Of a stretch of 64,000 nt of DNA, positions 10,468-44,244 are shown piece by piece. The stretch comes from Anaerohalosphaeraceae bacterium. Its GTDB lineage: Bacteria > Planctomycetota > Phycisphaerae > Sedimentisphaerales > Anaerohalosphaeraceae. Each line of letters starts with the position of its first letter. Position 1 is the first letter of the stretch. The DNA lies in assembly GCA_050309605.1 (NCBI GenBank), contig JBNRMN010000021.1, positions 32,001 to 96,000 of the forward strand, read 5' to 3'. Both the position numbers and the translations under genes were made by a program. Below the pieces are notes generated by a model, which ran no database searches, was not told the DNA's origin, and saw only the letters and a program-made list of their open reading frames with translations.

Positions 10468-10472
10468 TCTTA

Positions 10473-25463: not shown

Positions 25464-26780
25464 ATGCGAATCGTACAATTGACGCCGGGATCGGGTGATA
25501 ATTTTTATTGCGAAAACTGCCTGCGCGATTTGGCGCTGGTGCGGGCGATGCGTCGTTTGGGACACGAGGTGACCCTTGTGCCGATGTATTTGCCGCTTCA
25601 GATTCGCAACCCCGAACCATTACAGTCCGCCCCTATCTTCTTTGGGGGCATCAATGTCTATCTCCAGCAGAAACTCGGCCTGTTTCGCAAGGCCCCGATG
25701 TGGCTGGACCGCTGGCTGGACAGCCCGCTGCTGCTGCGGCCGATTGCAAAACTGTCTTCGATGACCCGGGCACGCGATCTGGGTGAAACCACCATTTCGA
25801 TGCTTGAGGGTGCAAACGGACGCCAGAGAAAAGAAATCGAGCGACTGTGCGACTGGCTGAGGAGTCTGCCGGATCAACCGGATATGATTTTGCTGTCCAA
25901 TGCGCTTTTGAGCGGACTGGCTCAGCCGCTTCGCGAAGCATTGGCTCGTCCTGTCGTCTGCCTGCTGCAGGACGAAGACGGCTTTTTGGACGGATTGGGG
26001 CATCCGTGGGCCGAGCGTGCCTGGCAGGTACTCCAACAAAATACCTCCGATATAGACCATTTTATCTCGGTCAGTCGCTACTTTGCGGATGTAATGGCCG
26101 AACGGATGGGGCTGGATTCGGAGACCCTCACAGTCATTCCGACGGGCATTGAGGTCAATGACTTTACCCCCGCGGCCGAACCGCCCGACAAGCCGACCAT
26201 TGGCTTTCTGGCTCGAATGTGCCACGACAATGGGCTGGATATCCTCGTCAATGCGCTGTTTATGCTGCGTCGGGATGAGCGGTTTGCGCAGGCTCGGCTG
26301 CTTGTAACCGGCGGCAGTCTTCGCAGCGACGCCGTTTTTCTGCGCAAAGTCAGACGCCGAATCGAGGCGCTGGATTTATCGGATTATGTCCTCTTCGAAC
26401 CGGACTACACCGGTACGGCACGAAAAAAATTCCTGAACCGTCTGTCGGTCATCAGCGTACCGGCACGTAAGCCGATGGCGTACGGTTTGTTTGCCATTGA
26501 GGCGATGGCCTGCGGCGTGCCGTTCATTGAGCCGGACGCGGGCGTATTTTCTGAACTGGCCCGCCATGGCGGAGGCGCTGTTTATGCTCAGAACAATCCG
26601 GTGCATTTGGCCGAGATGTTGAGGGATGTGCTCAGCGATCAGGCACGGTTTGCGCAATTGCGGCGCCGTGCCAGAGAAACGGCCGAAACGATCTTTGATA
26701 TTGACCATACCGCCGCTCAAATGGCGGCGTGTTTTCAGACGGTCATCGGTCAGGCGCATCACGCCGCGACAAATGAATAA
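25464..26780 (+). CDS. Glycosyltransferase family 4 (GT-B)
   Basis: MRIVQLTPG start, GHEV, IPTGI, IGFLAR, GLFAIEAMACGVP; N-terminal FYCENC. Confidence 0.85.
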   Translation: MRIVQLTPGSGDNFYCENCLRDLALVRAMRRLGHEVTLVPMYLPLQIRNPEPLQSAPIFFGGINVYLQQKLGLFRKAPMWLDRWLDSPLLLRPIAKLSSMTRARDLGETTISMLEGANGRQRKEIERLCDWLRSLPDQPDMILLSNALLSGLAQPLREALARPVVCLLQDEDGFLDGLGHPWAERAWQVLQQNTSDIDHFISVSRYFADVMAERMGLDSETLTVIPTGIEVNDFTPAAEPPDKPTIGFLARMCHDNGLDILVNALFMLRRDERFAQARLLVTGGSLRSDAVFLRKVRRRIEALDLSDYVLFEPDYTGTARKKFLNRLSVISVPARKPMAYGLFAIEAMACGVPFIEPDAGVFSELARHGGGAVYAQNNPVHLAEMLRDVLSDQARFAQLRRRARETAETIFDIDHTAAQMAACFQTVIGQAHHAATNE

Positions 26781-26798
26781 CGGGATAACGGGGACGAA

Positions 26799-27479
26799 AT
26801 GCTTGAATTAAATCATATCAGCAAACGTTACGCCAACGGCGGCGATGTCGTCGAGGTCTTGCGGGATGTTTCACTGCGGGTCGAGTCGGGACAAACGGTC
26901 TCGATCGTCGGGCCGTCCGGAAGCGGCAAGAGTACCCTGCTGAATCTGATCGGCGGACTGGATCGTCCCGATGACGGGACGATTGTTCTGGACGGCGAAA
27001 ATCTGGCCGGTCTTTCCGATGACGCGCTGGCGGCAGTACGCAACCGCAAAATCGGTTTTGTGTTTCAGCTTCATCATCTGCTGCCGCAATGCACGACGCT
27101 GGAGAATGTGCTGCTGCCGACACTGGCGACGCGCTGCAGTGCCGCGCAGCGCAGGACATTCGAGCAGCGCGCCGAGGCACTGCTCGAAAAAGTCGGCTTA
27201 ACGGACAAGCACCACAGTTTCCCCGGCCAGCTCAGCGGCGGCCAGCGCCAGCGCGTTGCGCTGATTCGGGCTTTGATCTGTCAGCCCCGGATTGTGTTGG
27301 CGGACGAGCCGACCGGTTCATTAGACGCCGAGGCCGCCGAGCAAATTGCTGAATTGCTTATCGCGCTGAATCAGACCGAAGGGACGACGCTGATTGTTGC
27401 CACTCACGCCCTGCCGCTGGCCGAGCGAATGGAACGGCGGCTTCGGCTGGATCGTAAGCAACTAAAAAAACTCGCTTAA
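26799..27479 (+). CDS. ABC transporter ATP-binding protein, LolD/MacB-like
   Basis: GPSGSGKST, IGFVFQ.HHLL, LSGGQRQR, LADEPTGSLD, ATH. Confidence 0.92.
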   Translation: MLELNHISKRYANGGDVVEVLRDVSLRVESGQTVSIVGPSGSGKSTLLNLIGGLDRPDDGTIVLDGENLAGLSDDALAAVRNRKIGFVFQLHHLLPQCTTLENVLLPTLATRCSAAQRRTFEQRAEALLEKVGLTDKHHSFPGQLSGGQRQRVALIRALICQPRIVLADEPTGSLDAEAAEQIAELLIALNQTEGTTLIVATHALPLAERMERRLRLDRKQLKKLA

Positions 27480-27507
27480 TTGGACTGTCACAATAATACG
27501 GAAATCC

Positions 27508-30500
27508 ATGCGGTTCGGTAAGGTGTTAACTCGTTCTATTCGGTATTATCGGCGAACGCATACGGCGCTGATTTGTGCCGCGATGGTGTGTACCGCCGTG
27601 CTGACCGGCGCCCTGCTGGTAGGCGATTCGGTGCGGGCCGGGCTGGAGCGACTGGCAGCCCTGCGGCTGGGACGGGTGCAATACACGCTGCTTGCCGGAG
27701 AATACCCCTTTCAAACCGACCTGGCCGAACGCATCAAACAGCGTACGGGCTATGAGACCGCCGCGGTGCTGATGACCGACGCGACAGTCGAGACCCCCGA
27801 TGGCTCGGTGCGAATTCATCGAGTTCGTATGCTCGGCGTCGATGAGGCCTTCTTTGCCCTGGGTCATTCTGAACCGTCCGACCGGGTCGTGCTGCCGGCA
27901 ATCAATGAAGCGCTGCGTCGGCGACTGGGCGCATCGTCGGTCGATTTGATCGTGCGTCTGGACGATCCGTCGGCGTTGTCGCGCGATTTGATCTTTGCCT
28001 CTGATGAACAATCACGCCGAACGCTGCGAATCAGCATCAACGGCCTTGTTCCGGATGACTCACTGGGGCGATTCAGCTTGCAGGCCGACCAGCAGGCGCC
28101 GCTGAATGTCTTTGTGCCGCGTTCGTGGCTGGCCGGACAGCTTGACCTTGAGGGACGCGCCAATCTGCTGGTTGTTTCCGCCGCGCCTTCGGGTCCCTCA
28201 TCGGCATCGCAATTGGATCGCGCTCTGGCGTGCGTGGTTCAACCAGAAGACTTCGGCCTGGAATGGATTGAGTATCCGAACAACGGAACGATTGAACTGC
28301 AAAGCATGCGGCTGTTTATTCCGGACCATGTCGGTCAGGCCGCCGTGCAGTGCGGCCGCGGCCCGCTGCGTGTGTTTTCGTATTTTGTCAACCGTCTTTC
28401 GCACGGCACTCGGGCTGCGCCTTATTCGATGGTCGCCGCCCTCGAAGGAACAGACCGTGCCGATTTGTTTGCAACACTGGGCGACAACGAAATCATCATC
28501 AATGAGTGGCTGGCCGACGACTTGAACGTCGAGCCGCGCGATACGCTGCAAATGGATTATTTCGCCATCAGCCCGACCCATACGCTGATTGAACAAAGCC
28601 GGACGTTCCTTGTCCGTCAGATCGTGCCGATGCTCGGTTTTGCCGCCGATGCCACGCTGATGCCGCCGTTTCCCGGCTTGGCGGATGCGGAAAATTGTCA
28701 GGACTGGGATCCGGCGATTCCAATTGATCTGAATCGGATTCGCGATAAGGATGAGGCGTACTGGGACCGTTATCGCGGCACGCCCAAGGCGTTCATCTCG
28801 CTGACCACCGCGCAGGATTTATGGCGCAATCGATTCGGCAATCTGACGGCGATTCGCTGGCCGATGGCAGACAATACGGTTGAATCGCTGGGCGAGGAGC
28901 TGGCCGAGGTGCTGGAGCCGGCGTCGCTGGGGCTGTTTTTTATCGATGCCGCCGAGCACAGTCGGCGCGCCGGGGCCGGATCGACGGATTTCGGGGGGTT
29001 GTTTGCCGGACTGAGTCTGTTTTTGATATTGGCCTGTGTGGTGCTACTGGCGTTGATTTTTGTGTTTTCTCTTCAACAGCGCAGCCGTCAGGCGGGGATT
29101 TTGCTGGCCATGGGCTGGACGAAAGGCAAAACAGCCCGGCTGCTGCTGGGCGAGGGCGCATTGCTGGCGCTGCTGGGAACTGTCGGCGGCACGATGCTGG
29201 GGGTTGGCTATACACTGGCGATGATGGCGGGTTTGCGAACGGTCTGGCAGGACGCAGTGGCCGGGGCAATGCTGCGGTTTTACGCCAATCCTGTCACATT
29301 GGTTATCGGCGCGGGCGCGGGTTTTGTGGTCGCCATCGGCGCTATGGGGTGCGGCCTTCTCGTCCATTTCAAGAAGACACCGATTGACCTGCTGTCTTAT
29401 ACCCCCGCTGTTATTTCCGGAACATTTTCGACTGCCGCACGAATCATCCGGCTGGTGCTGTTGGCGGTTCTGGCGGCGGCGTTGATTGGTTCATTTTATT
29501 TGCTTGATTCGCTACTCCGGCCTGAGCTGTTTTTCTTTATGAACGGCAGTCTCTTGCTGCTGATCTTGATGCTGTGGGCCGCGGAAATGATGCGTACCGC
29601 GGCTGTGATCCGCAAAACACCGTCCCGTTCGTCTCGGCTGATTGCCAAAAACATGATCCGGCGTCCCGGCCGCAGTCTGGCGGTGATGCTGACGGTGGCG
29701 TGCGGGGTATTCATCGTGCTGGGTGTTGGACTGAACCGCCGAAGTCCTGCGCGTTATGCTGAACGCGATTCCGGTACGGGCGGATTTGCCCTCTGGATCG
29801 AGACCGCCCTGCCGATGGCCAAAGTGCCCGATGCCTCGTTTGTCGGTCAAGTCGCCCACGCTGCAAACGCATCCGACGACATCGCAATAGTCGCTTTGCG
29901 GCAGCGCCGCGGCGACGACGCCAGTTGTCTGAATCTGAACCGCGCTCAAAATCCGACACTTTTGGGCGTTGACCCCGACGAATTTGCCCGGCGCGGAGCG
30001 TTTTCATTTCGCAGCGCTGAGCCAAGCGGGCCATCACCCTGGACATTGCTGACCCAAACCCTCGATGATGGTATGATTCCGGTCATCGGGGATCATGCCA
30101 CGGTGTATTGGGGACTGGGGCTGGATTTGGGCGATACCCTTGCGGTACAGGATGACCGGGGACGAGAACTTCATCTGAAAATTGTCGGTATTTTGAAAGA
30201 ATCCGTCTTTCAGGGTCGTCTTCTTGTCAATGAACGGGATTTTATTGAGCGGTTCCCGTCGGAAAGCGGGTACACGGTCTTTCTGGCGGAGTCCGACTCC
30301 GATAAGATTGATACGCTGACCTCGGCGTTTTCGCGGCAGCTTGCCGATTATGGCGCGGAAGTAGTTCCGACGAGCGATGTGCTTCGGGACTTTTTGCGGG
30401 TAGAAAACACCTATTTAACTATTTTTCTGGCATTGGGCGGACTGGGACTGATTCTCGGCAGTGCCGGCGCGGGATTGGTGTTGCTGTTTAACGTGATTGA

Positions 30501-30786
30501 TCGACGCGGAGAGCTGGCGATGATGCAGGCAATGGGCTTTTCCAAGGCCGTCCTCAATCGGCTGCTGCTGGCTGAACACATCGGTTTGTTTGCCGCCGGG
30601 GTCCTGGTCGGCGGGCTGTCGGCCATTGTGGCGGTGCTGCCTGCGGTTCAGTCCGCAGGCCTGGGAACCCTGGCCACGGCGCTGCTGCTGACGACCGTGG
30701 TTTTATTAAGCGGATTTGTCTGGGTTTGGTTCGGTGGACGGACGGCGATGAAACACAACCTGTTGGACAGTTTGCGAAACGAATGA
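27508..30786 (+). CDS. Large duplicated FtsX/MacB-type ABC permease (1092 aa)
   Basis: Two repeats of TM, large periplasmic domain, 3 TM; R..GILLAMG and RRGELAMMQAMGF FtsX motifs; ends LDSLRNE. Confidence 0.85.
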   Translation: MRFGKVLTRSIRYYRRTHTALICAAMVCTAVLTGALLVGDSVRAGLERLAALRLGRVQYTLLAGEYPFQTDLAERIKQRTGYETAAVLMTDATVETPDGSVRIHRVRMLGVDEAFFALGHSEPSDRVVLPAINEALRRRLGASSVDLIVRLDDPSALSRDLIFASDEQSRRTLRISINGLVPDDSLGRFSLQADQQAPLNVFVPRSWLAGQLDLEGRANLLVVSAAPSGPSSASQLDRALACVVQPEDFGLEWIEYPNNGTIELQSMRLFIPDHVGQAAVQCGRGPLRVFSYFVNRLSHGTRAAPYSMVAALEGTDRADLFATLGDNEIIINEWLADDLNVEPRDTLQMDYFAISPTHTLIEQSRTFLVRQIVPMLGFAADATLMPPFPGLADAENCQDWDPAIPIDLNRIRDKDEAYWDRYRGTPKAFISLTTAQDLWRNRFGNLTAIRWPMADNTVESLGEELAEVLEPASLGLFFIDAAEHSRRAGAGSTDFGGLFAGLSLFLILACVVLLALIFVFSLQQRSRQAGILLAMGWTKGKTARLLLGEGALLALLGTVGGTMLGVGYTLAMMAGLRTVWQDAVAGAMLRFYANPVTLVIGAGAGFVVAIGAMGCGLLVHFKKTPIDLLSYTPAVISGTFSTAARIIRLVLLAVLAAALIGSFYLLDSLLRPELFFFMNGSLLLLILMLWAAEMMRTAAVIRKTPSRSSRLIAKNMIRRPGRSLAVMLTVACGVFIVLGVGLNRRSPARYAERDSGTGGFALWIETALPMAKVPDASFVGQVAHAANASDDIAIVALRQRRGDDASCLNLNRAQNPTLLGVDPDEFARRGAFSFRSAEPSGPSPWTLLTQTLDDGMIPVIGDHATVYWGLGLDLGDTLAVQDDRGRELHLKIVGILKESVFQGRLLVNERDFIERFPSESGYTVFLAESDSDKIDTLTSAFSRQLADYGAEVVPTSDVLRDFLRVENTYLTIFLALGGLGLILGSAGAGLVLLFNVIDRRGELAMMQAMGFSKAVLNRLLLAEHIGLFAAGVLVGGLSAIVAVLPAVQSAGLGTLATALLLTTVVLLSGFVWVWFGGRTAMKHNLLDSLRNE

Positions 30787-30821: not shown

Positions 30822-32519
30822 ATGAAGGCAGAACACCGTCCTCAAAAAACGGACTCGGTCGTCTTTGAGCCAATGCCTTCGACGGTTCAGCCATTGAGCC
30901 GTCGAGATTTTTTACGTCTGGGGGCCATTGGCGCAGCCGGGACCTTGCTGGGACATCTTCGGCCGTCTGTCGCTGCGCCGGCTGATACCGTCTCATTGCC
31001 CGATCGGCCCCATATTGTGCTGATTATGTGCGACGATATGGGGTATTCGGATCTGGGCTGTTATGGCGGTGAGATTCATACCCCCATTCTGGACGGCCTG
31101 GCGGCCAATGGGGTGCGGTTCACGCAGTTTTACAACGCGGCACGCTGTGTGCCGACACGCGCGAGCCTGATGACGGGGCTTTACCCGCATCAGGCAGGGC
31201 TGGGACACATGGTCAACGACCGCGGGCATGACGGGTACAGAGGCCGGCTCAACGACCGCTGCGTCACCCTTGCCGAGGTGCTGCGCCAGGCGGGCTATCA
31301 GACCTTTATGAGCGGCAAATGGCATGTTACGCCCTATGATTATGCCAATCCGAAATCGACGCTGGATCGGGAAAGCTGGCCGCTTCAACGGGGCTTTGAC
31401 GAGTTTTTTGGGACACTTGCGGGGGCCGGCAGTTTTTACGCGCCCGTTTCGCTGATGCGCAATAACGAATTCATCGCGCCGGGGGATGATTTTTACTATA
31501 CCGATGCCATCAATGACCAGACCGCCCGTTATATCCGACAGGCAGACAAGAATCGTCCGTTATTCCTGTATGTCGCGCACACCGCCCCGCATTGGCCGCT
31601 GCACGCGCCGGAGGAAACTGTCGCCAAGTATGCGGACACCTATACTGTCGGCTGGGATGCGATTCGCCAAGCACGGTACAAACGGATGGTCGAGATGGGA
31701 ATTATTCAATCCGATTGGCCGCTGACCGAACGGGACAGTCGCGTGCCGCCGTGGGATGAGGTTGAGCACAAAGACTGGCAAGCAGGGCGCATGGCGGTAC
31801 ATGCGGCCATGGTGGATGTGATGGACCAGGGTATCGGCCGCATCGTCGAGGCACTCAAAGAAACCGGACGTTTTGAAAATACGCTGATCCTGTTTTTGTC
31901 GGATAACGGCGCTTCCAATGAAGTGATTCAGGGTCAAAACACCCGTCATGGACAGTTTGCCCGCGGCGGAACACGTCCTGATGTGATGCCGGGGCCGCCG
32001 GATACGTATGCGTCGTTCGGTATCCCATGGGCAAATGCGTCCAACACGCCGTTTCGGCTTTACAAAAAGTGGATTCATGAAGGCGGTATTGCCGCGCCGC
32101 TGATTGCCCATTGGCCGGACGGCATTCAAGCACGCGGCGAATTGCGTGCCGACATAGGACACATTATTGACATTATGGCCACCTGTGTCGAGGTCTCCGG
32201 CGCGACCTATCCGGCTGAGCGTAATGGCGTATCGGTGCTGCCGTGTGAAGGGCTTTCGCTCGCGCCGGTCTTTGCCGGAAAACCGCTTCGGCCGCGAGCG
32301 ATCTTTTTCGAGCATGAGGGCCATCGCGCAGTGCGTTATGGGCGGTGGAAACTGGTTGCCGAGCATCAAAAGAACTGGGAGCTTTATGATATGCAGGCCG
32401 ACCGAACGGAAATGAACAATTTGATCGATAGACATCCGGAGCTTGCCTCGTTAATGGAAGCACTTTATGAACAGTGGGCCAAACGCACCGGCGTTCTGCC
32501 CTGGCCTGTGCAAGGCTGA
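30822..32519 (+). CDS. Tat-exported Cys-type arylsulfatase
   Basis: SRRDFL Tat motif; PHIVLIMCDDMG; CVPTRASLMTG (CxPxR); GKWH; SDNG; exact start uncertain (30822 or a downstream ATG). Confidence 0.93.
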   Translation: MKAEHRPQKTDSVVFEPMPSTVQPLSRRDFLRLGAIGAAGTLLGHLRPSVAAPADTVSLPDRPHIVLIMCDDMGYSDLGCYGGEIHTPILDGLAANGVRFTQFYNAARCVPTRASLMTGLYPHQAGLGHMVNDRGHDGYRGRLNDRCVTLAEVLRQAGYQTFMSGKWHVTPYDYANPKSTLDRESWPLQRGFDEFFGTLAGAGSFYAPVSLMRNNEFIAPGDDFYYTDAINDQTARYIRQADKNRPLFLYVAHTAPHWPLHAPEETVAKYADTYTVGWDAIRQARYKRMVEMGIIQSDWPLTERDSRVPPWDEVEHKDWQAGRMAVHAAMVDVMDQGIGRIVEALKETGRFENTLILFLSDNGASNEVIQGQNTRHGQFARGGTRPDVMPGPPDTYASFGIPWANASNTPFRLYKKWIHEGGIAAPLIAHWPDGIQARGELRADIGHIIDIMATCVEVSGATYPAERNGVSVLPCEGLSLAPVFAGKPLRPRAIFFEHEGHRAVRYGRWKLVAEHQKNWELYDMQADRTEMNNLIDRHPELASLMEALYEQWAKRTGVLPWPVQG

Positions 32520-35118: not shown

Positions 35119-35380
35119 AGCCAACAATATGACACCACAACACCACCCCAAACTAAAGCGGCGCGGTATGCTGCGGGCGTGTGCACGGTTCGGCATTGCA
35201 CTGGGAGCGGTGCTGGGCGGCGCGGCGCTGTCGAAGCGCAACGGCGGTCGGCTCGACGAAAACGCCTGTCCGGATCCGCGTGGACGAACCGGCTGCGGAA
35301 CGTGCAGGCTGCTTGAGGCGTGCCGACTTCCGCGGGGTTTATCCTACAAACAGGTGCGAAAGGACAGCGACTATGTCTGA
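35105..35380 (+). CDS. Small Tat-like Cys-rich protein
   Basis: KRRGML, hydrophobic helix, then C-x8-C-x2-C-x5-C; fills the gap between the NHL and ferredoxin genes and overlaps both; start 35105 or 35129. Confidence 0.62.
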   Translation: MIQIKANNMTPQHHPKLKRRGMLRACARFGIALGAVLGGAALSKRNGGRLDENACPDPRGRTGCGTCRLLEACRLPRGLSYKQVRKDSDYV

Positions 35381-35930: not shown

Positions 35931-37240
35931 GCCGTGCATTCAACAGGCGCTGGATTGTTGTAATGCTGTGGCTGGGGCTGTTTTCGGTGGCGACGGCGGT
36001 GCAGCGGTTTCCGCCGCCTCAATTCAGCGAACCGCGCGAGCTGCCGGAACCCACAACACCGCCGCCGCGCTCAATGACAATGGAGACCGTTGATGTGGCG
36101 GTGCTGGCCGCGGCGCTGATGCTGGCGGCCTGGCTGATTCTCAAAAAACGCCGTCGCGGGTGGATCGTGGCGCTGATGCTGTTTTCGCTGGGGTATTTCG
36201 GTTTTTGGCGTCAGGGGTGTATCTGTCCGATCGGCGCAATCGGCAACGTATCGCTGGCGATTTTTGACGCATCGTATGCCCTGCCGCTGACGGTGCTGGC
36301 GTTTTTTCTGCTGCCGCTGCTGTTTACGCTGTTTTTCGGACGGGTTTTTTGCGGGGCGGTCTGTCCGCTGGGGATGGTGCAGGATCTGGTCTTGATCCGC
36401 CCTCTGCGCATCCCGGCATGGCTCGAATCGGGGCTTCGGTTGTTTGCGTGGCTGTACCTGGGGCTTGCAATCTTAATGGCCGCGACCGCCAGTGCGCTGG
36501 TCATCTGTCGATACGATCCGTTTGTGGCGTTTTTCCGACTGGGGGCCAATCCGCAATTGTGGATAATCAGCCTTTCGGTCCTGGTGGTTTCGCTGTTTGT
36601 GGGCCGGCCGTACTGTCGCTTCCTGTGTCCTTACGGCGTGATTCTTCGGCAATTGGGACGGCTGTCCAAATACCGCGTGACGATCACGCCCGATGAGTGC
36701 ATTCATTGCCGTTTGTGTGAAGACGCCTGTCCGTTTGGGGCGATAGACAAACCGACCGTCGAATGGCCTGACAGCCAGCGCGTCAAAGCGCGTCATCGGG
36801 CGCGCGTGCTGCTGATGCTGCTGCCAATGATCCTGTTGCTGGGCGGCTGGATCGGCTTCAAAGCCGCACCGGCACTGGCCCGCTCCAATGCCGCCGTTCG
36901 GCTGGCCGAGCGGATTCGACTGGAAGAGGCCGGCCTGGTTGCCGACCGGACGGATGAAAGCACCGCCTTTCGCACAACCAACCGCACGATTGAAAGCCTT
37001 TACACAGAGGCCGAGAACAAACAGCAGGATTTTGTCATTGGCTCGACGCTACTGGGCGGTGCAATGGGACTGTTGTGCGGCCTGACGCTGATGCGGACTC
37101 ATATCTGTTTTCGGCGCGATCAATATGAGGCCCATCGCGCCGGCTGCGTGGCCTGCGGGCGCTGCTATCTGTCCTGTCCGCGTGAACAACTGCGACGACA
37201 ACGACGAACTGATCTTCAACCGGCGGAGTCAACTGCATGA
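35927..37240 (+). CDS. Polytopic membrane Fe-S protein (NapH/MauN/RdxA-like)
   Basis: Multiple TM; CxxxCP motifs FCGAVCP and YCRFLCP; CIHCRLCEDACP and CVACGRCYLSCP; ATGA overlap with the upstream gene. Confidence 0.85.
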   Translation: MSRAFNRRWIVVMLWLGLFSVATAVQRFPPPQFSEPRELPEPTTPPPRSMTMETVDVAVLAAALMLAAWLILKKRRRGWIVALMLFSLGYFGFWRQGCICPIGAIGNVSLAIFDASYALPLTVLAFFLLPLLFTLFFGRVFCGAVCPLGMVQDLVLIRPLRIPAWLESGLRLFAWLYLGLAILMAATASALVICRYDPFVAFFRLGANPQLWIISLSVLVVSLFVGRPYCRFLCPYGVILRQLGRLSKYRVTITPDECIHCRLCEDACPFGAIDKPTVEWPDSQRVKARHRARVLLMLLPMILLLGGWIGFKAAPALARSNAAVRLAERIRLEEAGLVADRTDESTAFRTTNRTIESLYTEAENKQQDFVIGSTLLGGAMGLLCGLTLMRTHICFRRDQYEAHRAGCVACGRCYLSCPREQLRRQRRTDLQPAESTA

Positions 37241-38979
37241 GAGACTATGACGATACACCTGAAATCAGTCCGCTTCGACAGGCCGCGGGCGGCACGGCCA
37301 TTGTAACCGGCGTCTTCGGCGTGTTCATTGCGGCGCTGCTGGCGCTGCATTTGTATCACTACGTTGTCACTGACCCGGCGCGAACGGATGAACTGGAACA
37401 GTTGAAAGAGCAGTACACCCGCGAGCCGACTAATGCGCAACTGGCCGAACGCATTTATGAACTGGATATTCAGACGCGGCGGGATCAGTTTGCCCGATTG
37501 TATTTCCTGCAGCGCGGCACCTTGCTGCTGGTGATTGATTTGGCGGTCTTTGTATCGGCGGTTTTGATTCGTACGCAACATTGGCGCACGCCCGCCCTGC
37601 CGGATGCGGCCGGCGACCGCAAAACCGAACAAATCCGCCACGCGCTGCATGTACGTACGGCGGTTACGCTGACGGCGGTTGTGCTGGCAGGAGGCGGGCT
37701 GTATCTGGCGCAGCATCCTTTCGAAACTCCGCCGCCCCCGGCTGCGTCCGATGCAGCCGATCCGCAACCGGCTGAACCGGTGTATGCATCGTTTGAAGAC
37801 ACGCTGGCTCAGTGGCCGGCCTTTCGCGGCCCGCAGGGGCTGGGCGTTACCGAGTTGGACACAATTCCTGACGACTGGGACGGTCCGAGCGGGCGCAACA
37901 TCCTCTGGAAAAGTTCGGTTCCGCTTGAGGGGCATAATTCGCCGGTGATTTGGGAAGATCGCGTCTTTCTGAGCGGTGCAACCGACCAGCAGCAGCAAAT
38001 CTTCTGTTATGATCTCAACAGCGGGCAACTGCTCTGGGCCGGCGACGTGGCGATAGCCGACGATCCAGATCGCGAAAATATGTACATCATGGAGGATACC
38101 GGTTACGCCGCACCGACGGTCGTAACCGACGGCTATCGGGTCGCAGCCATCTTTGCCGGCGGCGACGTGGGCTGTTTCACCGTCGAGGGGGAACGTTTGT
38201 GGCATCGGCACCTGGGCGTGCCCGAAAGCGCCTACGGCTATGCCGCGTCGCTGACGGCGTATGAACAGAACATTATCGTTCAATACGACGTGAGTTATGA
38301 AGCCGGCCAAAGTCGGCTGATCGCACTGGACTGGCAGACCGGCCGCATCGTCTGGCAAACGCCGCGTCCCGTGCCGAACTCATGGTCGTCTCCGACGGTT
38401 GTACAAGTCGGCGAGACGCCGCAACTGTTGACCAGCGGCTCGCCGTGGGTCATTGCCTACGATCCGGCCGCCGGCACAGAATTGTATCGCGCCGACGCCC
38501 TCAGCGGCGATGTGGCGCCGACACAGGTTTTTGCCGACAACAAGATTCTGGCCATTGAACCGTATAACTCCATCGTGGCAATTCGTACTGAAGAGGCCAA
38601 CGGCGATGTAACCGACACGCATCTGGCCTGGCGCAGTCCGGCCGACATCCCCGACATTTCCAGTCCGGTCAGCGATGGAACGCTCGTCTGGACGCTGAGC
38701 ACCTACGGCACACTCATCGCATTCGATCTTTCGGACGGGAGCGAAGTCTATTCCGAGCGTCTTGATTTTGAATTTCAGGCTTCGCCAAGCATCGTCAATG
38801 ACCGGCTGTATCTGCTGTCTGTCCGGGGGACGATGATTCTGGCCGAGACCGGGCGCCAATACCGTGAAATCAAACAACTTGAGCTGGGCGAAAAGTGCTA
38901 CGCCACGCCGGCCTTTGCCCCGGGACGCATCGTTATCCGCGGCATCAACCATTTGTATTGCATAGGAACAGCACCGTGA
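37237..38979 (+). CDS. BamB/PQQ-like beta-propeller with three N-terminal TM helices
   Basis: Three hydrophobic segments, Pro-rich linker, WPAFRGPQGLG, SWSSP, YATPAF, IRGINHLYCIG; ATGA overlap. Confidence 0.83.
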   Translation: MRDYDDTPEISPLRQAAGGTAIVTGVFGVFIAALLALHLYHYVVTDPARTDELEQLKEQYTREPTNAQLAERIYELDIQTRRDQFARLYFLQRGTLLLVIDLAVFVSAVLIRTQHWRTPALPDAAGDRKTEQIRHALHVRTAVTLTAVVLAGGGLYLAQHPFETPPPPAASDAADPQPAEPVYASFEDTLAQWPAFRGPQGLGVTELDTIPDDWDGPSGRNILWKSSVPLEGHNSPVIWEDRVFLSGATDQQQQIFCYDLNSGQLLWAGDVAIADDPDRENMYIMEDTGYAAPTVVTDGYRVAAIFAGGDVGCFTVEGERLWHRHLGVPESAYGYAASLTAYEQNIIVQYDVSYEAGQSRLIALDWQTGRIVWQTPRPVPNSWSSPTVVQVGETPQLLTSGSPWVIAYDPAAGTELYRADALSGDVAPTQVFADNKILAIEPYNSIVAIRTEEANGDVTDTHLAWRSPADIPDISSPVSDGTLVWTLSTYGTLIAFDLSDGSEVYSERLDFEFQASPSIVNDRLYLLSVRGTMILAETGRQYREIKQLELGEKCYATPAFAPGRIVIRGINHLYCIGTAP

Positions 38980-41321
38980 GTGAGCCGGACTTGACATTTG
39001 TGGATCAAAGCGTTGAGCGCATCGGCAAAGCGCCGCGATTCGTTCTGCCGCTGCTGCAGGCGATCCAGGGGCACTACGGCTATCTGCCGAGTGAAGCGCT
39101 TGAGCGTCTGTGTGCTGTGAGCGATTGTCAGCCGGGCGATGTGTGGTCGGTGGCGACGTTTTACGACCAGTTTCGTCTGCGTCCGGCCGGCAAGCACTTC
39201 GTGCGGGTTTGTATCGGTACGGCCTGCCATGTCAAAGGGGCAACTCGTATTTATGACGCCTTTCGTGACTATCTGAAGATCACCGGCGATGACGACACCG
39301 ACACCGAGCGCCAATTCACGGTGGAAAAAGTCGCCTGTCTGGGTTGCTGTATGCTGGCGCCGGCGATTCAGATTGACGATGTCATCTATGGGCATTTGCA
39401 GCCGGAAACGGTCGGGCAGGTGCTGGATGATTTCCTGGCCCAGCAGGACAGCAAGCCCGCCGAGGAGCAGGATAAAGACGCTCACGCCGTTCATCACGGC
39501 CAGGCGCGAATTTGCCTGGATTCGAGCTGCCGCGCCGTCGGCAGTGACAAGGTGTACGCCGCGCTGAAACAGGTCGCTAAACGACTGCGTCTGCCCGTGC
39601 GTGTCAAAGACACCGGCTGCCACGGGATGTCTTATCTGGCGCCGCTGGTGGAGGTGCTGACCGAGGACGGGCGGGTGTTTCGATACGGCCGTGTCCAGCC
39701 GGCGGATGTCGAGCCGTTGCTGCGCCGACACTTTCGACCGGCCTCACTGCCGGCACGCATCGGGGCCAAAGCGGCGGATTGGCTGGATTCGCTCGTCGAA
39801 GATCGTCTGGACGAAGGACCGGTACGCTATACGCTGCACGTCCGCCCGCACGAGACGGATCGCTATCTCGGCCCGCAGGTACACATCGCCACCGAACATT
39901 TCGGCCACGCCGAGCCGTTGGATATTGAGGAATACCAATCGCATGGCGGATTTACGGCACTGCGCCGCTGCCTGGAACAGAATGACCCTGAGGCTGTGGT
40001 TGCTGCAATAGAACAGGCCGGCCTGCGCGGTCGCGGCGGCGGCGGATTTCCTACCCATCTGAAATGGTTTGCTGTGCAGAAAACACCGTCGGACAAAAAA
40101 TACATTATCTTAAACGGCGATGAAGGCGACCCCGGTGCGTTTATGGATCGGATGCTGATGGAGTCGTATCCGTTTCGCATCCTGGAGGGAATGGCGATTG
40201 CCGCCGCGACGGTCGGGGCCGACGAGGGCTATTTGTATATTCGCGCCGAGTATCCGCTTGCCCTTGAACGGATGCGAAAAGCCATTGAGCTGTGTCGTCA
40301 GCACGGCTATTTGGGGCGCCGCATTGGCGGCAGCGGGTTTTCGCTGGATTTGCATATTTACGTCGGCGCCGGGGCGTTTGTCTGCGGCGAGGAAACGGCT
40401 TTGCTGGCCAGTATCGAAGGCCGACGCGGGATGCCGCATCTGCGCCCGCCCTATCCGACACGCCAAGGCCTGTGGCACAAGCCAACGCTGGTCAACAATG
40501 TCGAGACCTATGCGCTCGTACCCTGGATACTGCGCAACGGTCCGGAGGCCTTTGCCGCATACGGCACCGAACACAGCAAAGGCACCAAGGTCTTTGCACT
40601 GGCCGGCAAGGTGCGCCGGGGCGGATTGGTCGAAGTCCCGATGGGCATTACGATCCGCCAAATCGTCGAGGACATCGGCGGCGGCATTGAACACGACCGG
40701 GCGCTGAAGGCTGTCCAGATCGGCGGTCCGTCGGGCGGCTGTGTAGCGGCGTCGATGGCCGATACGCCGATTGACTACGAATCGCTGCATCACGCCGGGG
40801 CGATTATGGGTTCCGGCGGTATGGTCGTGCTGGATGAGACCGACTGTATGGTTGATATCGCCCGCTATTTTCTGGCGTTTACGCAGGAACAATCCTGCGG
40901 CAAATGCACGTTCTGCCGGGTCGGCACCAAACGAATGCTTGAACTGCTGGATCGTCTGTGCGAGGGGAAAGGCAAGACCGGCGACATTGAAAAACTGACC
41001 GAGCTGGGACATCAGATTCAGCAAAGCAGCCTTTGCGGACTGGGCAAGACCGCCCCGAATCCGGTGCTGTCCACGATTGCCCATTTTCGCGACGAGTATG
41101 AGGCACATCTGCACGGGCACTGCCCGGCGTGTACCTGTCGGTCCTTGATCCGCTTTACGATTACCGACCAATGTATCGGCTGTACGCTCTGTGCTCAGCA
41201 CTGTCCATCGGATGCCATCTTGATGAAACCGTATGAACAACACGAAATCGATCAGGATAAATGTGTCCGCTGCGGCGTCTGCAAGAGCGTCTGTCCGGCC
41301 GATGCGGTCCACGTCGAGTAA
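38976..41321 (+). CDS. Fused NuoE/NuoF-like (HydC+HydB, BfuCB-type) FMN/NAD-binding Fe-S protein
   Basis: NuoE CIGTAC..CLGCC; second thioredoxin-like domain; GLRGRGGGGFPT; NGDEGDPGAFMDR; CGEETAL; GGPSGGC; SCGKCTFCR..CGLG; two C-terminal CxxCxxCxxxCP; GTGA overlap at 38976. Confidence 0.9.
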   Translation: MSEPDLTFVDQSVERIGKAPRFVLPLLQAIQGHYGYLPSEALERLCAVSDCQPGDVWSVATFYDQFRLRPAGKHFVRVCIGTACHVKGATRIYDAFRDYLKITGDDDTDTERQFTVEKVACLGCCMLAPAIQIDDVIYGHLQPETVGQVLDDFLAQQDSKPAEEQDKDAHAVHHGQARICLDSSCRAVGSDKVYAALKQVAKRLRLPVRVKDTGCHGMSYLAPLVEVLTEDGRVFRYGRVQPADVEPLLRRHFRPASLPARIGAKAADWLDSLVEDRLDEGPVRYTLHVRPHETDRYLGPQVHIATEHFGHAEPLDIEEYQSHGGFTALRRCLEQNDPEAVVAAIEQAGLRGRGGGGFPTHLKWFAVQKTPSDKKYIILNGDEGDPGAFMDRMLMESYPFRILEGMAIAAATVGADEGYLYIRAEYPLALERMRKAIELCRQHGYLGRRIGGSGFSLDLHIYVGAGAFVCGEETALLASIEGRRGMPHLRPPYPTRQGLWHKPTLVNNVETYALVPWILRNGPEAFAAYGTEHSKGTKVFALAGKVRRGGLVEVPMGITIRQIVEDIGGGIEHDRALKAVQIGGPSGGCVAASMADTPIDYESLHHAGAIMGSGGMVVLDETDCMVDIARYFLAFTQEQSCGKCTFCRVGTKRMLELLDRLCEGKGKTGDIEKLTELGHQIQQSSLCGLGKTAPNPVLSTIAHFRDEYEAHLHGHCPACTCRSLIRFTITDQCIGCTLCAQHCPSDAILMKPYEQHEIDQDKCVRCGVCKSVCPADAVHVE

Positions 41322-41349
41322 CAACACGGAATACACCGACCGCTCGACG

Positions 41350-41383
41350 AACTAAAACTACGAACTACGAACTAAGAACTAAA
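41350..41383 (+). repeat. Heptamer tandem repeat AACTAA-(AACTACG)2-AACTAAG-AACTAAA
   Basis: In the spacer before GTG 41390; exact 20-mer shared with 10481-10500 (minus strand). Confidence 0.8.
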
Positions 41384-41389
41384 AAACTC

Positions 41390-43006
41390 GTGCCAACACT
41401 GACCATTGACAATCAGACGGTTGAGGCGCCTGATGGCGCTACGATTCTTGAGGCAGCTCATGCGGCCGGGATTCACATCCCGACGATGTGTTATCTGAAA
41501 GGTTTTGCTCCCTCAACAAGCTGTATGGTGTGCGTCGTGCGGGTCGAGGGCGTCAAGTCCCTCGTGCCGGCCTGCGGGGCTATGGCGGTGGATCGGATGC
41601 ACGTCACCACCGACAGCGACGAAATCCGCGCCGCCCGCAAGGCCGCCATTGAACTGCTGCTCAGCGATCATTTGGGCGACTGCGTCGGGCCGTGTCAGAT
41701 GGGCTGTCCGGCGGGAATGAACATCCCGCTGATGCTTCGGCATATTGCTGACGGTGATGACCGGGCGGCGATAGAAGTTATCAAACGCGACATTCCTTTG
41801 CCCGCGATTTTGGGCAGGATATGTCCGGCCCCATGCGAAAAGGTCTGCCGACGGGCCAAAATTGACCAGGCCGTGTCCATTTGTCGGCTCAAACGCTTTG
41901 CTGCGGACATAGATTTGGATTGCGGCGAACCTTTTGAGCCGTCTGTACGTTCTAATAAGAGTAAAACCGTCGCCATTATCGGCGCTGGGCCGTGCGGCCT
42001 TTCGGCGGCATATTATCTGGCCTGTGAGGGAATCGAGTGTGTCGTCTATGATGAACATGCCCGGCCCGGCGGTGCGGTGCGATATGGGCCAATTGATCGA
42101 AAGGTACTGCCTATTGATATCGTTGAGCGGGAAACGGGACTGTTGTTGAAACACAATATTACATTTCAACCGCAGCAGCGAATCGGCAAAGATGTCGCGT
42201 TTGATACGCTATGCCGAGACTTTGACGCGGTGCTCGTGGCCGCGGGCGACCCGATGCTGTACGACAGAAACGAGTTTGCACTGGATGTCAAAGACAACCA
42301 CATCCGTGTGGATCGCCAAACGTATGCAACCTCGCGTAAGGGGGTCTTTGCCGCAGGCGGGGCAATCGGCAGCCGTCGATGGGCGGTGCGGGCGGTCGCC
42401 GACGGCAAAGAGGCCGCGGATTCGATAGCCGTGTATCTGGAGAAAAAACCCCTTGTTTCAAAAAAACCGTTCAACAGCCGAATGGGCGCCTTGTCGCCGG
42501 AAGAACAGAAAACGCTGCTCGCCACCGCCAACGCCGAGCCGCGATATGAACCGAGTGAGCCAACCGCCGGTTTGGACGACACGGATGCGCGGGCTGAAGC
42601 GCGGCGGTGTCTGCATTGCGACTGCCGCAAGGCCGAACACTGTCGCCTGCGTGATTTGGCGTTCGAGTTCAATGCCCGCCAAAGCCAATGGGCCGGTCAG
42701 CGCAAGACAATGCGGATTGAGTTTGGCAAGGATTGCGTTGTCTATGAACCGGGCAAGTGCATCCAGTGCGGCCTGTGCATTCAGACCGCCCGGAAAGCCG
42801 ACGAAACAACAGGGCTGGCCTTTGTCGGTCGGGGATTTGCAATGCGCATCGGGGTCCCGTTTGAAAAAACTTTGCCCGAGGCAATCGCCCGTGCGGGAGC
42901 CGAATGCGTCGCAAACTGCCCGACCGGCGCCTTGGCGTTTGACGACTCTTCGCAGGATATGGAGAACCAACAGCAAGAAACGACAAATGAATCGTTCCGA
43001 CAGTAA
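41390..43006 (+). CDS. NuoG/HydA-N-like Fe-S protein with inserted GltD/NfnB-like FAD domain (BfuA/SfrB-like, truncated)
   Basis: [2Fe-2S] PTMC..SCMVC..PAC; PCQMGCPAG and GRICPAPCEKVC; IIGAGPCGL Rossmann; EARRCLHC; KCIQCGLC..CPTGAL; no GGGxxAxD domain. Confidence 0.8.
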   Translation: MPTLTIDNQTVEAPDGATILEAAHAAGIHIPTMCYLKGFAPSTSCMVCVVRVEGVKSLVPACGAMAVDRMHVTTDSDEIRAARKAAIELLLSDHLGDCVGPCQMGCPAGMNIPLMLRHIADGDDRAAIEVIKRDIPLPAILGRICPAPCEKVCRRAKIDQAVSICRLKRFAADIDLDCGEPFEPSVRSNKSKTVAIIGAGPCGLSAAYYLACEGIECVVYDEHARPGGAVRYGPIDRKVLPIDIVERETGLLLKHNITFQPQQRIGKDVAFDTLCRDFDAVLVAAGDPMLYDRNEFALDVKDNHIRVDRQTYATSRKGVFAAGGAIGSRRWAVRAVADGKEAADSIAVYLEKKPLVSKKPFNSRMGALSPEEQKTLLATANAEPRYEPSEPTAGLDDTDARAEARRCLHCDCRKAEHCRLRDLAFEFNARQSQWAGQRKTMRIEFGKDCVVYEPGKCIQCGLCIQTARKADETTGLAFVGRGFAMRIGVPFEKTLPEAIARAGAECVANCPTGALAFDDSSQDMENQQQETTNESFRQ

Positions 43007-43059
43007 CGTCTTTATCGTCAAATTAAAAAACGTCAATGTTAAAGATTGGGAAAACAGCA

Positions 43060-44244
43060 ATGAAAGCAAAAATTTGGATGACATTTATTTCCGCAGCTAT
43101 CGTCTTGTCCGCCTCGGCGATCGCGGCCGACTGGCCGCATTGGCGCGGCCCGAATCTGGACGGCATCAGCACCGAGACTGACTGGAATCCGCAGGCGCTG
43201 AACGATTTGAATATTGTCTGGGAGGCTGAAATCGGCATCGGCTTTTCCTCCGTCAGCGTTGCCGGCGGCAGGGCCTATGTCATGGGCAATATCAATCGCA
43301 ACACCGATGTGCTGTATTGCTTTGACGCGGCCAGTGGCGATGAGCTGTGGCGATTTGAGTACGCCGAGCCGCTGAATCCGAAGTACTATGAAGGCGGCCC
43401 CGGCTCGACGCCGACCGTCCATGAGGGCAAGGTCTATACCCTCAGCAAAACCGGCAAAGTCCACTGCGTTAACGCACACACCGGCGAGCTGATCTGGAAT
43501 CTCAACCTGCCGCACAAGGAAACGACATGGGGATTTGCCTCGTCGGGGCTGATTCTTGACGACAAGGTCATCTTCAACGTCGGCGCATCGGGGGTGGCCT
43601 TGAATAAGAATGACGGCAGCATCGTCTGGGACAGCGATAAAAGCGAATCCGGCTACGCCACACCCGTTCCCTTCACGCACAATGGAAAAACCCTGCTGGC
43701 CATTTTTGGCAAAGAGACGCTAATGGCTGTCGATCCGACGGATGGAAAGCGAATGTGGAGCTATCCCTGGAAAACACAGCACGACGTGAATGCCGCTGAC
43801 CCGATCATTGTCGGGGATGAAATTTTTATTACTTCCGGCTACAATCGCGGCGCGACGCTGCTGAAAATCGCCTCGCCGCCGACGCGCGTCTGGGAAAACA
43901 AAAATATGCGCAGCCAGATGAGCGGACCGGTACTGATCGACGGCTATCTGTACGGCATCGATCAGAATCAACTGGCGTGCGTGGAATGGAAAACCGGCAA
44001 ACAGCTCTGGGCCGAGCGCAAAGCGGGCAACGGCTCGCTGACCGCCGCCGGCGATAAACTCATCGTCGCCAGCGAAGGCGGGCGATTGATGATCGTCCAG
44101 GCCACGCCGGACGGTTTCCAGGAATTATCCGGCGCCGACATCCTGAGCGCCCGCTGCTGGGCGCCGCCGGTACTGTCGGGCGGCCGTATCTACTTTCGCA
44201 ACTCACGCGGAAAGCTGGTCTGTGTGGATGTAAGGAATCAATAA
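43060..44244 (+). CDS. Secreted BamB/PQQ-like beta-propeller protein
   Basis: Sec signal ending AIAA|DWPHWRGPNLDG; GYATP; WAPPVLSGGRIYFRN..LVCVD. Confidence 0.87.
   Translation: MKAKIWMTFISAAIVLSASAIAADWPHWRGPNLDGISTETDWNPQALNDLNIVWEAEIGIGFSSVSVAGGRAYVMGNINRNTDVLYCFDAASGDELWRFEYAEPLNPKYYEGGPGSTPTVHEGKVYTLSKTGKVHCVNAHTGELIWNLNLPHKETTWGFASSGLILDDKVIFNVGASGVALNKNDGSIVWDSDKSESGYATPVPFTHNGKTLLAIFGKETLMAVDPTDGKRMWSYPWKTQHDVNAADPIIVGDEIFITSGYNRGATLLKIASPPTRVWENKNMRSQMSGPVLIDGYLYGIDQNQLACVEWKTGKQLWAERKAGNGSLTAAGDKLIVASEGGRLMIVQATPDGFQELSGADILSARCWAPPVLSGGRIYFRNSRGKLVCVDVRNQ

Follow-up and report, generated by a model that had tools for sequence, protein, structure and literature searches.

A widespread, undescribed gene cluster combines a Bfu-type flavoprotein pair with a NapH-like iron–sulfur membrane protein and β-propellers

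In the NfnABC complex of Caldicellulosiruptor saccharolyticus (Csac), NADPH is described as binding beside the flavin adenine dinucleotide (FAD) of NfnA, the subunit that takes electrons from it, with the electrons following the path FAD–A7–A6–A3–A2–A1–B1 (PMC11829005). In their account of the Bfu family, Schut et al. (2022) predicted membrane-bound forms, Nuo-Bfu and Mbh-Bfu, and listed 17–18 of 57 BfuB clades without an assigned function (PMC9304861). Meheust et al. (2021) described PF12801 NapH-like proteins as modular links that join cytosolic or membrane electron pools to extracytosolic enzymes, most of whose reactions they gave as unknown (PMC8238504). Here we report a gene cluster in which modules of both kinds stand side by side. 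It occupies positions 25464–44244 of a 64,000-nucleotide stretch (the window, whose numbering is used throughout) of an Anaerohalosphaeraceae bacterium genome (GenBank assembly GCA_050309605.1, contig JBNRMN010000021.1, positions 32,001 to 96,000). On the plus strand, in order, lie genes for a family 4 glycosyltransferase (GT4), an ATP-binding cassette (ABC) ATPase, an FtsX-type permease, a sulfatase, a β-propeller (Prop1), an NHL propeller, a small Cys protein, a ferredoxin with a twin-arginine translocation (Tat) signal, a NapH-like protein, a second propeller (Prop2), a NuoEF fusion, a GltD-like protein and a third propeller (Prop3). The system is real and widespread, and it combines known modules in a new way. 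An earlier note, written from the letters of the window, knew of no characterised pathway with this gene set, and a full-text literature search likewise found no paper describing it (subscription journals lay outside its coverage).

The case for a single system is comparative. Eighteen NapH-like proteins were aligned, GTDB was scanned for the resulting pattern at one genome per species, and relatives were confirmed afterwards, which gave at least 576 confirmed relatives among at least 600 pattern matches. Synteny was counted in the best 80 of these loci, with up to 10 kb fetched on each side, by scoring the window proteins with phmmer against all six-frame open reading frames (ORFs); denominators include only loci that extend far enough, and 38 loci have both 10-kb flanks (full-flank loci). 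Beside the NapH-like gene, the ferredoxin was present in 72 of 73 loci, the NHL protein in 68 of 69, Prop2 in 69 of 70, NuoEF in 61 of 65, Prop1 in 55 of 62 and the GltD-like protein in 51 of 61, and an equivalent of the small Cys ORF sits between the NHL and ferredoxin genes in 57 of 65. Prop3 is more variable (34/54), and Bacteroidales loci can hold as many as four additional copies of it. All nine partners occur together with the NapH-like gene in 20 of the 38 full-flank loci. The order (GT4–ABC–FtsX)–Prop1–NHL–small Cys protein–Tat ferredoxin–NapH-like–Prop2–NuoEF–GltD-like–Prop3 recurs under the labels of at least eight phyla among these 80 loci, being kept in records labelled Planctomycetota, Bacteroidota, Desulfobacterota, Verrucomicrobiota, Kiritimatiellae, KSB1, Lentisphaerae and Spirochaetaceae, and NuoEF follows Prop2 in nearly all loci across these labels. 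Because the same order recurs under so many phylum labels, the arrangement is far beyond chance. Twelve of the thirteen genes are one conserved, co-inherited unit. The earlier note had staked its proposal on conserved synteny in other genomes, which was found in the best 80 loci and under many phylum labels; it had counted thirteen genes, and only the sulfatase falls away.

By record title, 57 of the 80 loci belong to Planctomycetota (Phycisphaerae, Sedimentisphaerales, Anaerohalosphaeraceae and others). The other 23 are labelled Bacteroidota (6), Desulfobacterota or 'Deltaproteobacteria' (4), Verrucomicrobiota (4) and KSB1 (2), or are unlabelled (2), with one locus each under Kiritimatiellae, Lentisphaerae, Spirochaetaceae, 'Aegiribacteria' and 'Eubacteriales'. 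Phylum labels cluster on a quick maximum-likelihood tree of the NapH-like proteins, which needs 13 label changes where shuffled labels need 22.8, none of 200 shuffles giving so low a count. In the larger, mostly Planctomycetota half of this tree, the four Desulfobacterota rows make up a single starred clade, and support for their junction with a Phycisphaerae group is only 80%. Two labels on contigs of metagenome-assembled genomes are probably wrong. The 'Candidatus Aegiribacteria' contig (L007, JAIVYN010000045.1) is nested inside Sedimentisphaerales on a branch of 0.012, for which reason we read its label as a binning artefact, and the 'Eubacteriales' contig (L053, CAYFVQ010000115.1) pairs with a KSB1 single-cell genome.

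Individual loci also depart from the common arrangement. On a Phycisphaerales bin7 chromosome (L048, CP070678.1) the NapH-like gene is present, matches to the NHL, ferredoxin and GltD-like proteins are missing, and NuoEF is matched only in part (490 bits); the cluster may have decayed here. Locus L026 has two Sde182 nucleoside-hydrolase-like genes inserted between the NHL and ferredoxin genes (6604–9129), and in a KSB1 locus (L057) genes for a TonB-dependent receptor and a glycogen phosphorylase flank Prop2 inside the cluster (11544–13676 and 15618–18083).

All thirteen ORFs were checked against the ORF list and by Pfam and NCBIfam scans of the window proteins, and the genes, domains and start/stop overlaps listed in the earlier note proved to be real, at the coordinates it had named. 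Read from the sequence, the ATG of the small Cys gene at 35105 precedes the NHL stop at 35118 by 14 nucleotides, and the ferredoxin ATG at 35373 lies 8 nucleotides ahead of the small Cys stop at 35380, so that the small Cys gene overlaps both of its neighbours. ATGA overlaps follow at 35927 (ferredoxin/NapH-like) and 37237 (NapH-like/Prop2) and a GTGA overlap at 38976 (Prop2/NuoEF), giving five start/stop overlaps in succession from the NHL gene to NuoEF. The chain of overlaps described from 34072 to 41321 therefore stands, and a further one between NuoEF and the GltD-like gene is unlikely. For the GltD-like gene, GTG 41390 is a likelier start than ATG 41261, because orthologue conservation sets in near residue 49 of the long form, and from GTG 41390 it does not overlap NuoEF. 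The co-directional run itself exceeds thirteen genes, extending from a lipoyl synthase gene (22704) to a DUF1559 pilin-like gene that ends at 45895. Consensus scans found promoter-like sites (9 seen against 8.9 ± 3.0 expected) and terminator-like sites (27 against 22.2 ± 4.2) at chance level, and the ends of the operon are thus not defined by sequence.

The closest solved relatives of both cytoplasmic subunits are NfnABC and Stn (Csac NfnABC, 9BOV/9BP5; Sporomusa ovata Stn, 8OH5; archaeal Nfn-Bfu, 9N5U). The NuoEF fusion (38976–41321, 781 amino acids [aa]) carries a NuoE 2Fe-2S domain, a thioredoxin-like part, a NuoF core for flavin mononucleotide (FMN) and NADH, and a C-terminal 2x[4Fe-4S] domain. 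Its residues 178–781 align end to end with residues 4–584 of Csac NfnB (9bov_B, 700 bits). The top nine PDB sequences score 571–700 bits and are NfnB, StnB or HydB, except that 9mqx_B is named only as an NADH-binding 51 kD subunit, its score and alignment being like those of Bfu B subunits; six of the nine cover the N- and C-terminal domains, and three begin at query residues 297–317. Complex I NuoF and the formate dehydrogenase beta subunit FdsB score 270–411 bits, over the core only. The NuoE domain (2Fe-2S_thioredx, 149 bits) forms the N-terminus of the fusion, which makes BfuC a fused domain here and not a separate subunit. Conservation of the cofactor ligands is almost complete: the NuoE-type 2Fe-2S cysteines (C79, C84, C121, C125), those of the N3-type cluster, both C-terminal 4Fe-4S motifs (C733/736/739/743 and C763/766/769/773) and the H711/C716/C721/H756 site are each kept in 61–62 of 62 orthologues. 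We would equate this last site with one of the zinc sites that have been described for the B subunits of Bfu enzymes (PMC11829005).

The GltD-like protein (41390–43006, 538 aa from GTG 41390; Fer2_4, Fer4_Nqo3 and GltD-type matches) finds its best PDB matches in NfnA (9bov_A, 337 bits), StnA (8oh5_C) and archaeal NfnA (9n5u_A). Its alignment to 9bov_A is split, query residues 47–329 pairing with chain residues 6–286 and query 321–558 with 426–671, and the split is the same against 8oh5_C. Missing are about 140 residues between the halves of the FAD fold (chain residues 287–425) and everything beyond chain residue 671 of about 1175, that is, the Fdh/NuoG-like C-terminal domain. The first gap falls at the position that the NAD(P)H Rossmann domain occupies in GltD/NfnL-type proteins. 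The NAD(P)H-binding Rossmann domain of the Nfn/Stn A subunit is thus absent (the alignment jumps from 286 to 426), and since there is no NADPH site the pair cannot be an Nfn transhydrogenase. What the GltD-like protein keeps, as aligned to NfnA, StnA and HydA chains, is the 2Fe-2S N-domain, the GltD-type 2x[4Fe-4S] and FAD fold, and the HydA/NuoG-type clusters, with conserved cysteines at C77, C88, C91 and C105, C450, C453, C455 and C461, and C500, C503, C506 and C553. It falls below the curated PRK12814 cut-off (408 against 916 bits), and its orthologues are uniformly short, at 511–530 aa in the nine loci where the gene was called. The label 'NuoG/GltD-like' given to it earlier can accordingly be sharpened to a relative of NfnA and StnA from which the NAD(P)H domain has been deleted, which stresses the missing catalytic partner.

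The two proteins together have the architecture by which BfuB, BfuC and BfuA of the Bfu family are recognised. As judged from sequence, the pair is Bfu by architecture with an Nfn/Bfu-type core, in agreement with the HydBC/Bfu-type flavoprotein that had been proposed. Like NfnABC and Stn, it keeps the C-terminal 2x[4Fe-4S] of the B subunit and the 2Fe-2S cysteines of the C subunit. Unlike them, it has C and B fused in one chain and an A subunit that lacks both the NAD(P)H domain and the whole Fdh/NuoG-like C-terminal half, and its genes sit among membrane and periplasmic genes. The predicted Nuo-Bfu and Mbh-Bfu resemble it in concept, as a BfuBC core joined to a membrane complex; they are described as having complex-I or Mbh proton-pumping modules with quinone or proton reduction (PMC9304861), whereas our cluster has a NapH-like membrane part and would end in the periplasm.

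The membrane and periplasmic part resembles a different set of systems. NapGH, NosGH/NosR, MauMN and PceC also pair a Fer4_5 membrane protein, bearing CxxxC(P) and cytoplasmic 4Fe-4S motifs, with a Tat multi-cluster ferredoxin, and the nos and mau clusters likewise have β-propeller partners and an ABC system nearby. The NapH-like protein of the window (35927–37240, 437 aa; Fer4_5, 59 bits) has about seven hydrophobic segments and is 53–81% identical to its relatives in the 18-sequence alignment. Fifteen cysteines are kept in 80 of 80 sequences, laid out as a CxC, two CxxxC(P), a single Cys and two CxxCxxCxxxCP motifs split by two extra helices. Its best NCBIfam names are NapH/MauN and NosR, at scores far below the curated cut-offs (TIGR02163, NapH/MauN, 56.6 against 213.05 bits; PRK09477, 49 against 234). 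It differs from the NapH of NapGH in this low score (56.6 against 213), in its extra membrane helices and in the split second C-terminal 4Fe-4S motif. The whole group of NapGH, Nos, Mau and PceC systems differs in having NapA, NosZ, MauAB or a reductive dehalogenase, none of which is present here, and the apparent electron source in our cluster would be a Bfu flavoprotein, not quinol.

The Tat-signal polyferredoxin (35373–35930, 185 aa; Fer4 families) has RR at residues 9–10 and 17 invariant cysteines in 35 sequences, enough for four [4Fe-4S] clusters. Its layout is NapG-like, and TIGR00397 (NapG/MauM) is not among its matches at E <= 0.001. The small Cys protein (35105–35380, 91 aa) has an RR-type signal or anchor followed by C-x8-C-x2-C-x5-C and LPRGLS, and matches no Pfam or NCBIfam family. 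Across the 57 loci, its equivalents share an RRxF-like N-terminus, a hydrophobic stretch and the pattern C-xn-C-x2-C-x5-C-x-LPxA; it is a real conserved gene and not a chance ORF. Because its signal is Tat-like, we suggest that it is exported folded with a cofactor.

Proteins of PF12801 also serve the flavinylated systems described in PMC8238504, so the membrane protein family is the same; those systems are defined there by an FMN-binding domain or ApbE, in place of which the present cluster has an all-Fe–S periplasmic chain. The window and the 35 unmatched ORFs scanned (of 80 such ORFs, from 12 loci) contain neither FMN_bind nor ApbE, and a CxxCH heme motif is absent from the cluster proteins. 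To judge by the encoded motifs, the outer side is all iron–sulfur. The same 35 ORFs and the cluster itself hold no NapA/NapB, hydrogenase, formate dehydrogenase, or Nap or Nos catalytic subunit, which bears out the absence of a hydrogenase, formate dehydrogenase, Nap or Nos partner remarked on earlier, and no known terminal reductase, oxidase or other catalytic subunit recurs in the scanned flanks. The earlier description of the wire as 'trans-envelope' claims too much: all parts are cytoplasmic, inner-membrane or periplasmic and anchored, and no outer-membrane component was found among them.

Four propellers accompany this wire. The NHL protein (34072–35118; NHL in Pfam) has an N-terminal membrane anchor, and its AlphaFold2 model (predicted local distance difference test [pLDDT] 89.9) consists of a helix at 10–32 and a six-bladed propeller. 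An F-x-G-C-C-N-P motif (C254–C255) stays invariant across 35 sequences. When 1.84 billion representatives were searched with a profile, 1858 proteins matched at E <= 1e-30, and of the best 150 of these, 149 contain G.?CCNP; an Atlas query with the protein met only 'hypothetical protein' and NHL clusters. A giant multi-propeller relative of 4276 aa (P0127) has nine NHL-profile stretches, and its sole Cys–Cys lies in GECCGLGD, not GCCNP. Prop1 (32592–33989; PQQ_2), also anchored at its N-terminus, is modelled as a helix at 2–28 and an eight-bladed BamB-like propeller (pLDDT 88.9), with C140, H162, C187, C217, M258, H260, C376 and C459 invariant in 30 sequences. Prop2 (37237–38979; PQQ_2) is BamB-like with an N-terminal domain of 2–3 membrane helices (hydrophobic segments at 21–39 and 88–106) that contains conserved F27, L69, D77, R81, L98 and R140. 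Prop3 (43036–44244; PQQ_2, 131 bits) is a secreted BamB-like propeller with a Sec-type signal, a hydrophobic N-terminus at 13–31 and a PDB match to BamB (E 5e-12).

PDB sequence matches of the NHL protein, Prop1 and Prop3 are confined to designer propellers, TRIM NHL domains and BamB. The likeness to BamB, tetrathionate hydrolase and TRIM NHL propellers is one of fold only, at 13–21% sequence identity, and the anchors, the Cys/His/Met set of Prop1 and the GCCNP motif have no identified counterpart in BamB or TRIM propellers. The best curated scores fall well short (BamB TIGR03300, 73.1 against 285.2; PQQ_enz_alc_DH, 60 against 480), and on the latter score pyrroloquinoline quinone (PQQ) dehydrogenases were rejected as the identity of the propellers. 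Pfam, NCBIfam and Foldseek searches, the last with the NHL protein and Prop1, detected no Cu, tryptophan tryptophylquinone (TTQ) or PQQ sites and no known cofactor-bearing enzyme domain.

The first three genes form a looser module. GT4 (25464–26780, 438 aa; Glycos_transf_1/Glyco_transf_4 in Pfam) is predicted to be cytoplasmic, and all of its NCBIfam matches lie far under cut-off. It keeps a CxxC near the N-terminus (C16, C19) and C166 in 27 of 27 orthologues; such conserved cysteines are unusual for GT4 enzymes and suggest a metal or redox site. A GT4-conflict match in Pfam (27.8 bits) raised a defence-system reading, which was dropped, as it is one of six overlapping GT4 models. The ABC ATPase (26799–27479, 226 aa; ABC_tran, 130 bits) is LolD/MacB/DevA-like, and the permease (27508–30786, 1092 aa) is a duplicated form with two FtsX stretches, about nine hydrophobic segments, large extracytoplasmic loops at 39–501 and 743–978 and no PDB sequence match. 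Curated scores do not place them in LolCDE (LolD TIGR02211, 253.2 against a cut-off of 307.75 bits; lolCE, 23.1 against 362.45). Among the full-flank loci, GT4 is present in 22, the ABC ATPase in 26 and FtsX in 24 of 38. In Bacteroidota, KSB1 and Kiritimatiellae loci the module lies downstream of the GltD-like gene instead of upstream, often with one more propeller of the PQQ_2/ACSF4 type. GT4, ABC and FtsX are frequent accessory neighbours, not obligatory ones, and the suggestion of the earlier note that they may make or export a substrate is a conjecture.

On balance, we lean towards a reading in which the conserved genes encode one membrane-spanning redox machine, with a Bfu core wired outward to propellers; its chances seem to us a little better than even. 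In the cytoplasm, the BfuC–BfuB flavoprotein, with its NADH/FMN site and ferredoxin-facing C-terminal clusters, would work beside the cut-down NfnA-type subunit. As the NADPH-binding domain is gone, the third-substrate site would be replaced by an Fe–S connection to the NapH-like membrane protein. Through the latter, electrons would cross the cytoplasmic membrane to the Tat-exported four-cluster ferredoxin and the small Tat-type four-Cys protein, which would serve the membrane-anchored propellers. The vicinal Cys–Cys of the NHL propeller would be the likeliest reactive site, because no other Cys feature of the outer side is invariant without belonging to a cluster, and translational coupling links the NHL gene to the Fe–S genes; the BamB-like propellers may be scaffolds or handle substrate. 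By analogy with NosDFY, which accompanies nos clusters, the GT4 and MacB/Lol-type ABC module, often with its own propeller, would probably serve to assemble, mature or supply the periplasmic part. The NADH and reduced ferredoxin that fermentation yields would be oxidised jointly (confurcation), and the electrons would go to an extracytoplasmic acceptor or a thiol- or sulfur-type site, with no need for quinone, heme or covalent flavin. We favour this outward direction because the carrier labels are those of lineages described in genome surveys as (purely) fermentative (PMC11266412) and because no low-potential oxidase is encoded.

A more far-reaching version of this proposal strikes us as possible and on the doubtful side. 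The pair would then be the first Bfu-type bifurcating or confurcating enzyme with its third substrate outside the cytoplasm, reached by an all-Fe–S conduit without quinone, heme or covalent flavin. Uncultured fermentative anaerobes of many phyla would use it to dump the electrons of NADH and ferredoxin outward, and the terminal site would be a new catalytic propeller, formed by the redox-active Cys–Cys of the NHL protein and a small Tat-exported Fe–S subunit.

Several points weigh against a single outward-facing machine. Physical coupling of the Bfu pair to the NapH-like protein is suggested by gene order, and we infer both the direction of flow and the acceptor. A quinol-fed wire in the manner of NapGH is possible, E. 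coli NapH being taken as a quinol dehydrogenase, as cited in PMC8238504. In the GltD-like protein the 'GD' motif for FAD reads FAAGG, without the Asp of 9bov_A, which makes FAD binding uncertain. Three full-flank loci (L043, L073 and L077) keep NHL, ferredoxin, NapH-like and Prop2 genes with no NuoEF or GltD-like genes nearby, and L060, whose downstream flank is shorter, has the same pattern; either the membrane and periplasmic core can stand apart, or the flavoprotein genes lie elsewhere in those genomes. Foldseek neighbours of the propellers are generic (TRIM2/3 NHL domains for the NHL protein, BamB and tetrathionate hydrolase for Prop1), and the invariant propeller cysteines could be structural disulfides. 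Finally, all 80 loci come from records of metagenome-assembled or single-amplified genomes, and the cultured Kiritimatiella, Pontiella and Sedimentisphaera are not named among the 120 + 120 best protein matches.

Cultured Kiritimatiellales reduce S0, Fe(III) and anthraquinone-2,6-disulfonate (AQDS) by unexplained means, one of them without quinones or cytochromes (PMC7356697). The present system is probably not the basis of these reductions; the lead was dropped because the 120 best matches to the Kiritimatiellae NapH-like protein name no cultured species and the 80 loci include no isolate.

Among the alternatives, a role in maturation or maintenance survives best, and we still consider it unlikely. 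The Fe–S wire and the ABC system would here build a periplasmic enzyme composed of the NHL protein and the small Cys subunit, or keep that enzyme reduced; its substrate would be non-redox or unrelated to NADH and ferredoxin turnover, the electron flux would be small, and no energy or redox sink would be involved. Maturation or reduction has been proposed for MauM/MauN with methylamine dehydrogenase and for NosR/NosGH and NosDFY with N2O reductase. The mau cluster has much the same layout of a propeller, a small Cys-rich Tat protein, a NapG-like ferredoxin and a NapH-like protein, and clade II nos clusters much the same layout of a propeller, a NapGH-like pair and an ABC transporter; that the membrane protein takes its best NCBIfam names from NapH/MauN and NosR, and that the ABC/GT4 module is often adjacent (22–26 of 38 loci), fits as well. 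A full Bfu core for NADH and ferredoxin, however, kept in 61 of 65 loci, would be a heavy cost for maturation only, and known cofactor-bearing enzyme domains (Cu, TTQ or PQQ sites) went undetected.

The genes may instead be independent neighbours, which we find distinctly unlikely. The NapH-like protein and ferredoxin would then be a quinol dehydrogenase feeding the propellers, the NuoEF/GltD-like pair a separate soluble enzyme, and GT4, ABC and FtsX an unrelated envelope module, with the order kept by co-regulation or history and not by physical coupling. NapGH is indeed regarded as a quinol dehydrogenase. The four loci without nearby flavoprotein genes argue in the same direction, as do the 12–16 of 38 full-flank loci that lack GT4, ABC or FtsX and the tolerance of unrelated insertions (the sulfatase in the window, the Sde182-like genes in L026, the TonB receptor and phosphorylase in L057). 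Yet it is hard to see what substrate site an NfnA-like subunit would have for itself once its NAD(P)H domain is gone, and the GTGA overlap of Prop2 and NuoEF, with NuoEF following Prop2 in nearly all loci, ties the flavoprotein genes to the membrane genes.

Electrons might also flow inward, a possibility we rate as very unlikely. The propeller/NHL assembly would oxidise a low-potential external donor and pass electrons through the ferredoxin and the NapH-like protein to the Bfu pair, which would bifurcate them to NAD+ and ferredoxin; the wire would take the place held by NADPH in NfnABC. The characterised NfnABC does run from its third substrate, NADPH, to NAD+ and ferredoxin (PMC11829005), and the domain replaced here is exactly the donor site. 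Against this stand the lack of a hydrogenase, formate dehydrogenase or other known low-potential oxidase in the cluster or scanned flanks, and the carrier labels, which are those of lineages described as fermentative that would need sinks rather than sources (PMC11266412). That BamB-like propellers, a Lol/MacB ABC system and GT4 assemble or traffic an outer-envelope lipoprotein, glycolipid or glycan, with the redox genes merely supplying reducing power (for example, for disulfide handling), is hardly credible: BamB is the top structural match of Prop1 and the top sequence match of Prop3, and the ATPase is LolD-like at 253 bits, but the curated BamB, LolD and LolCE cut-offs are missed widely and conservation is strictest in the Fe–S proteins and the NHL protein, not in ABC and GT4.

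The Tat-signal sulfatase (30822–32519; Sulfatase, 201 bits, plus TAT_signal) was rejected as a member of the system. Among the 80 loci it stands directly upstream of Prop1 only in the window and in a 96%-identical relative (L001), which marks it as a lineage-specific insertion. A formylglycine-generating enzyme-like gene (FGE-sulfatase; 7323–8435, plus strand) lies 23 kb upstream of it. Directly downstream of Prop3, the gene for an HpiC1-like protein, which ends in dockerin-like repeats, overlaps by 4 nucleotides the next gene, for a DUF1559/N-methyl pilin-like protein (44295–45895, plus strand); the same pair occupies this place in two further Anaerohalosphaeraceae/Planctomycetota loci (L006, 19453–21097; L022, 19435–21000). 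The plus-strand run ends against a convergent KamA-family radical S-adenosylmethionine aminomutase-like gene (45896–47026, minus strand; 225 bits, cut-off 199). Immediately upstream of GT4 lies a gene for a GspK-like protein of 516 aa (23826–25376, plus strand), and the minus strand at 8539–21245 encodes three T2SSE-type ATPases, a T2SSF protein, an N-methyl pilin-like protein and a number of ORFs that match no Pfam family. At 48979–51057 (minus strand), a ferritin/rubrerythrin-like gene adjoins a full catalase (662 bits), a hint that this bacterium, whose relatives have been called strict fermenters, meets oxygen regularly.

Should the gene order reflect a true coupling of the modules, the cluster would represent a third route for electrons through the inner membrane, beside the quinone/cytochrome and flavinylated routes, and one tied directly to flavin-based electron bifurcation. 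A large family of NHL proteins now called 'hypothetical', with its 1858 representatives at E <= 1e-30, would also gain a function, and one Bfu type so far unassigned would receive a role. The anaerobes that carry the cluster are uncultured, widespread in sediments and digesters, and have been described as purely fermentative (PMC11266412). An extracytoplasmic electron outlet would alter models of their redox balance and, possibly, of their interactions with minerals, sulfur species or partner cells.

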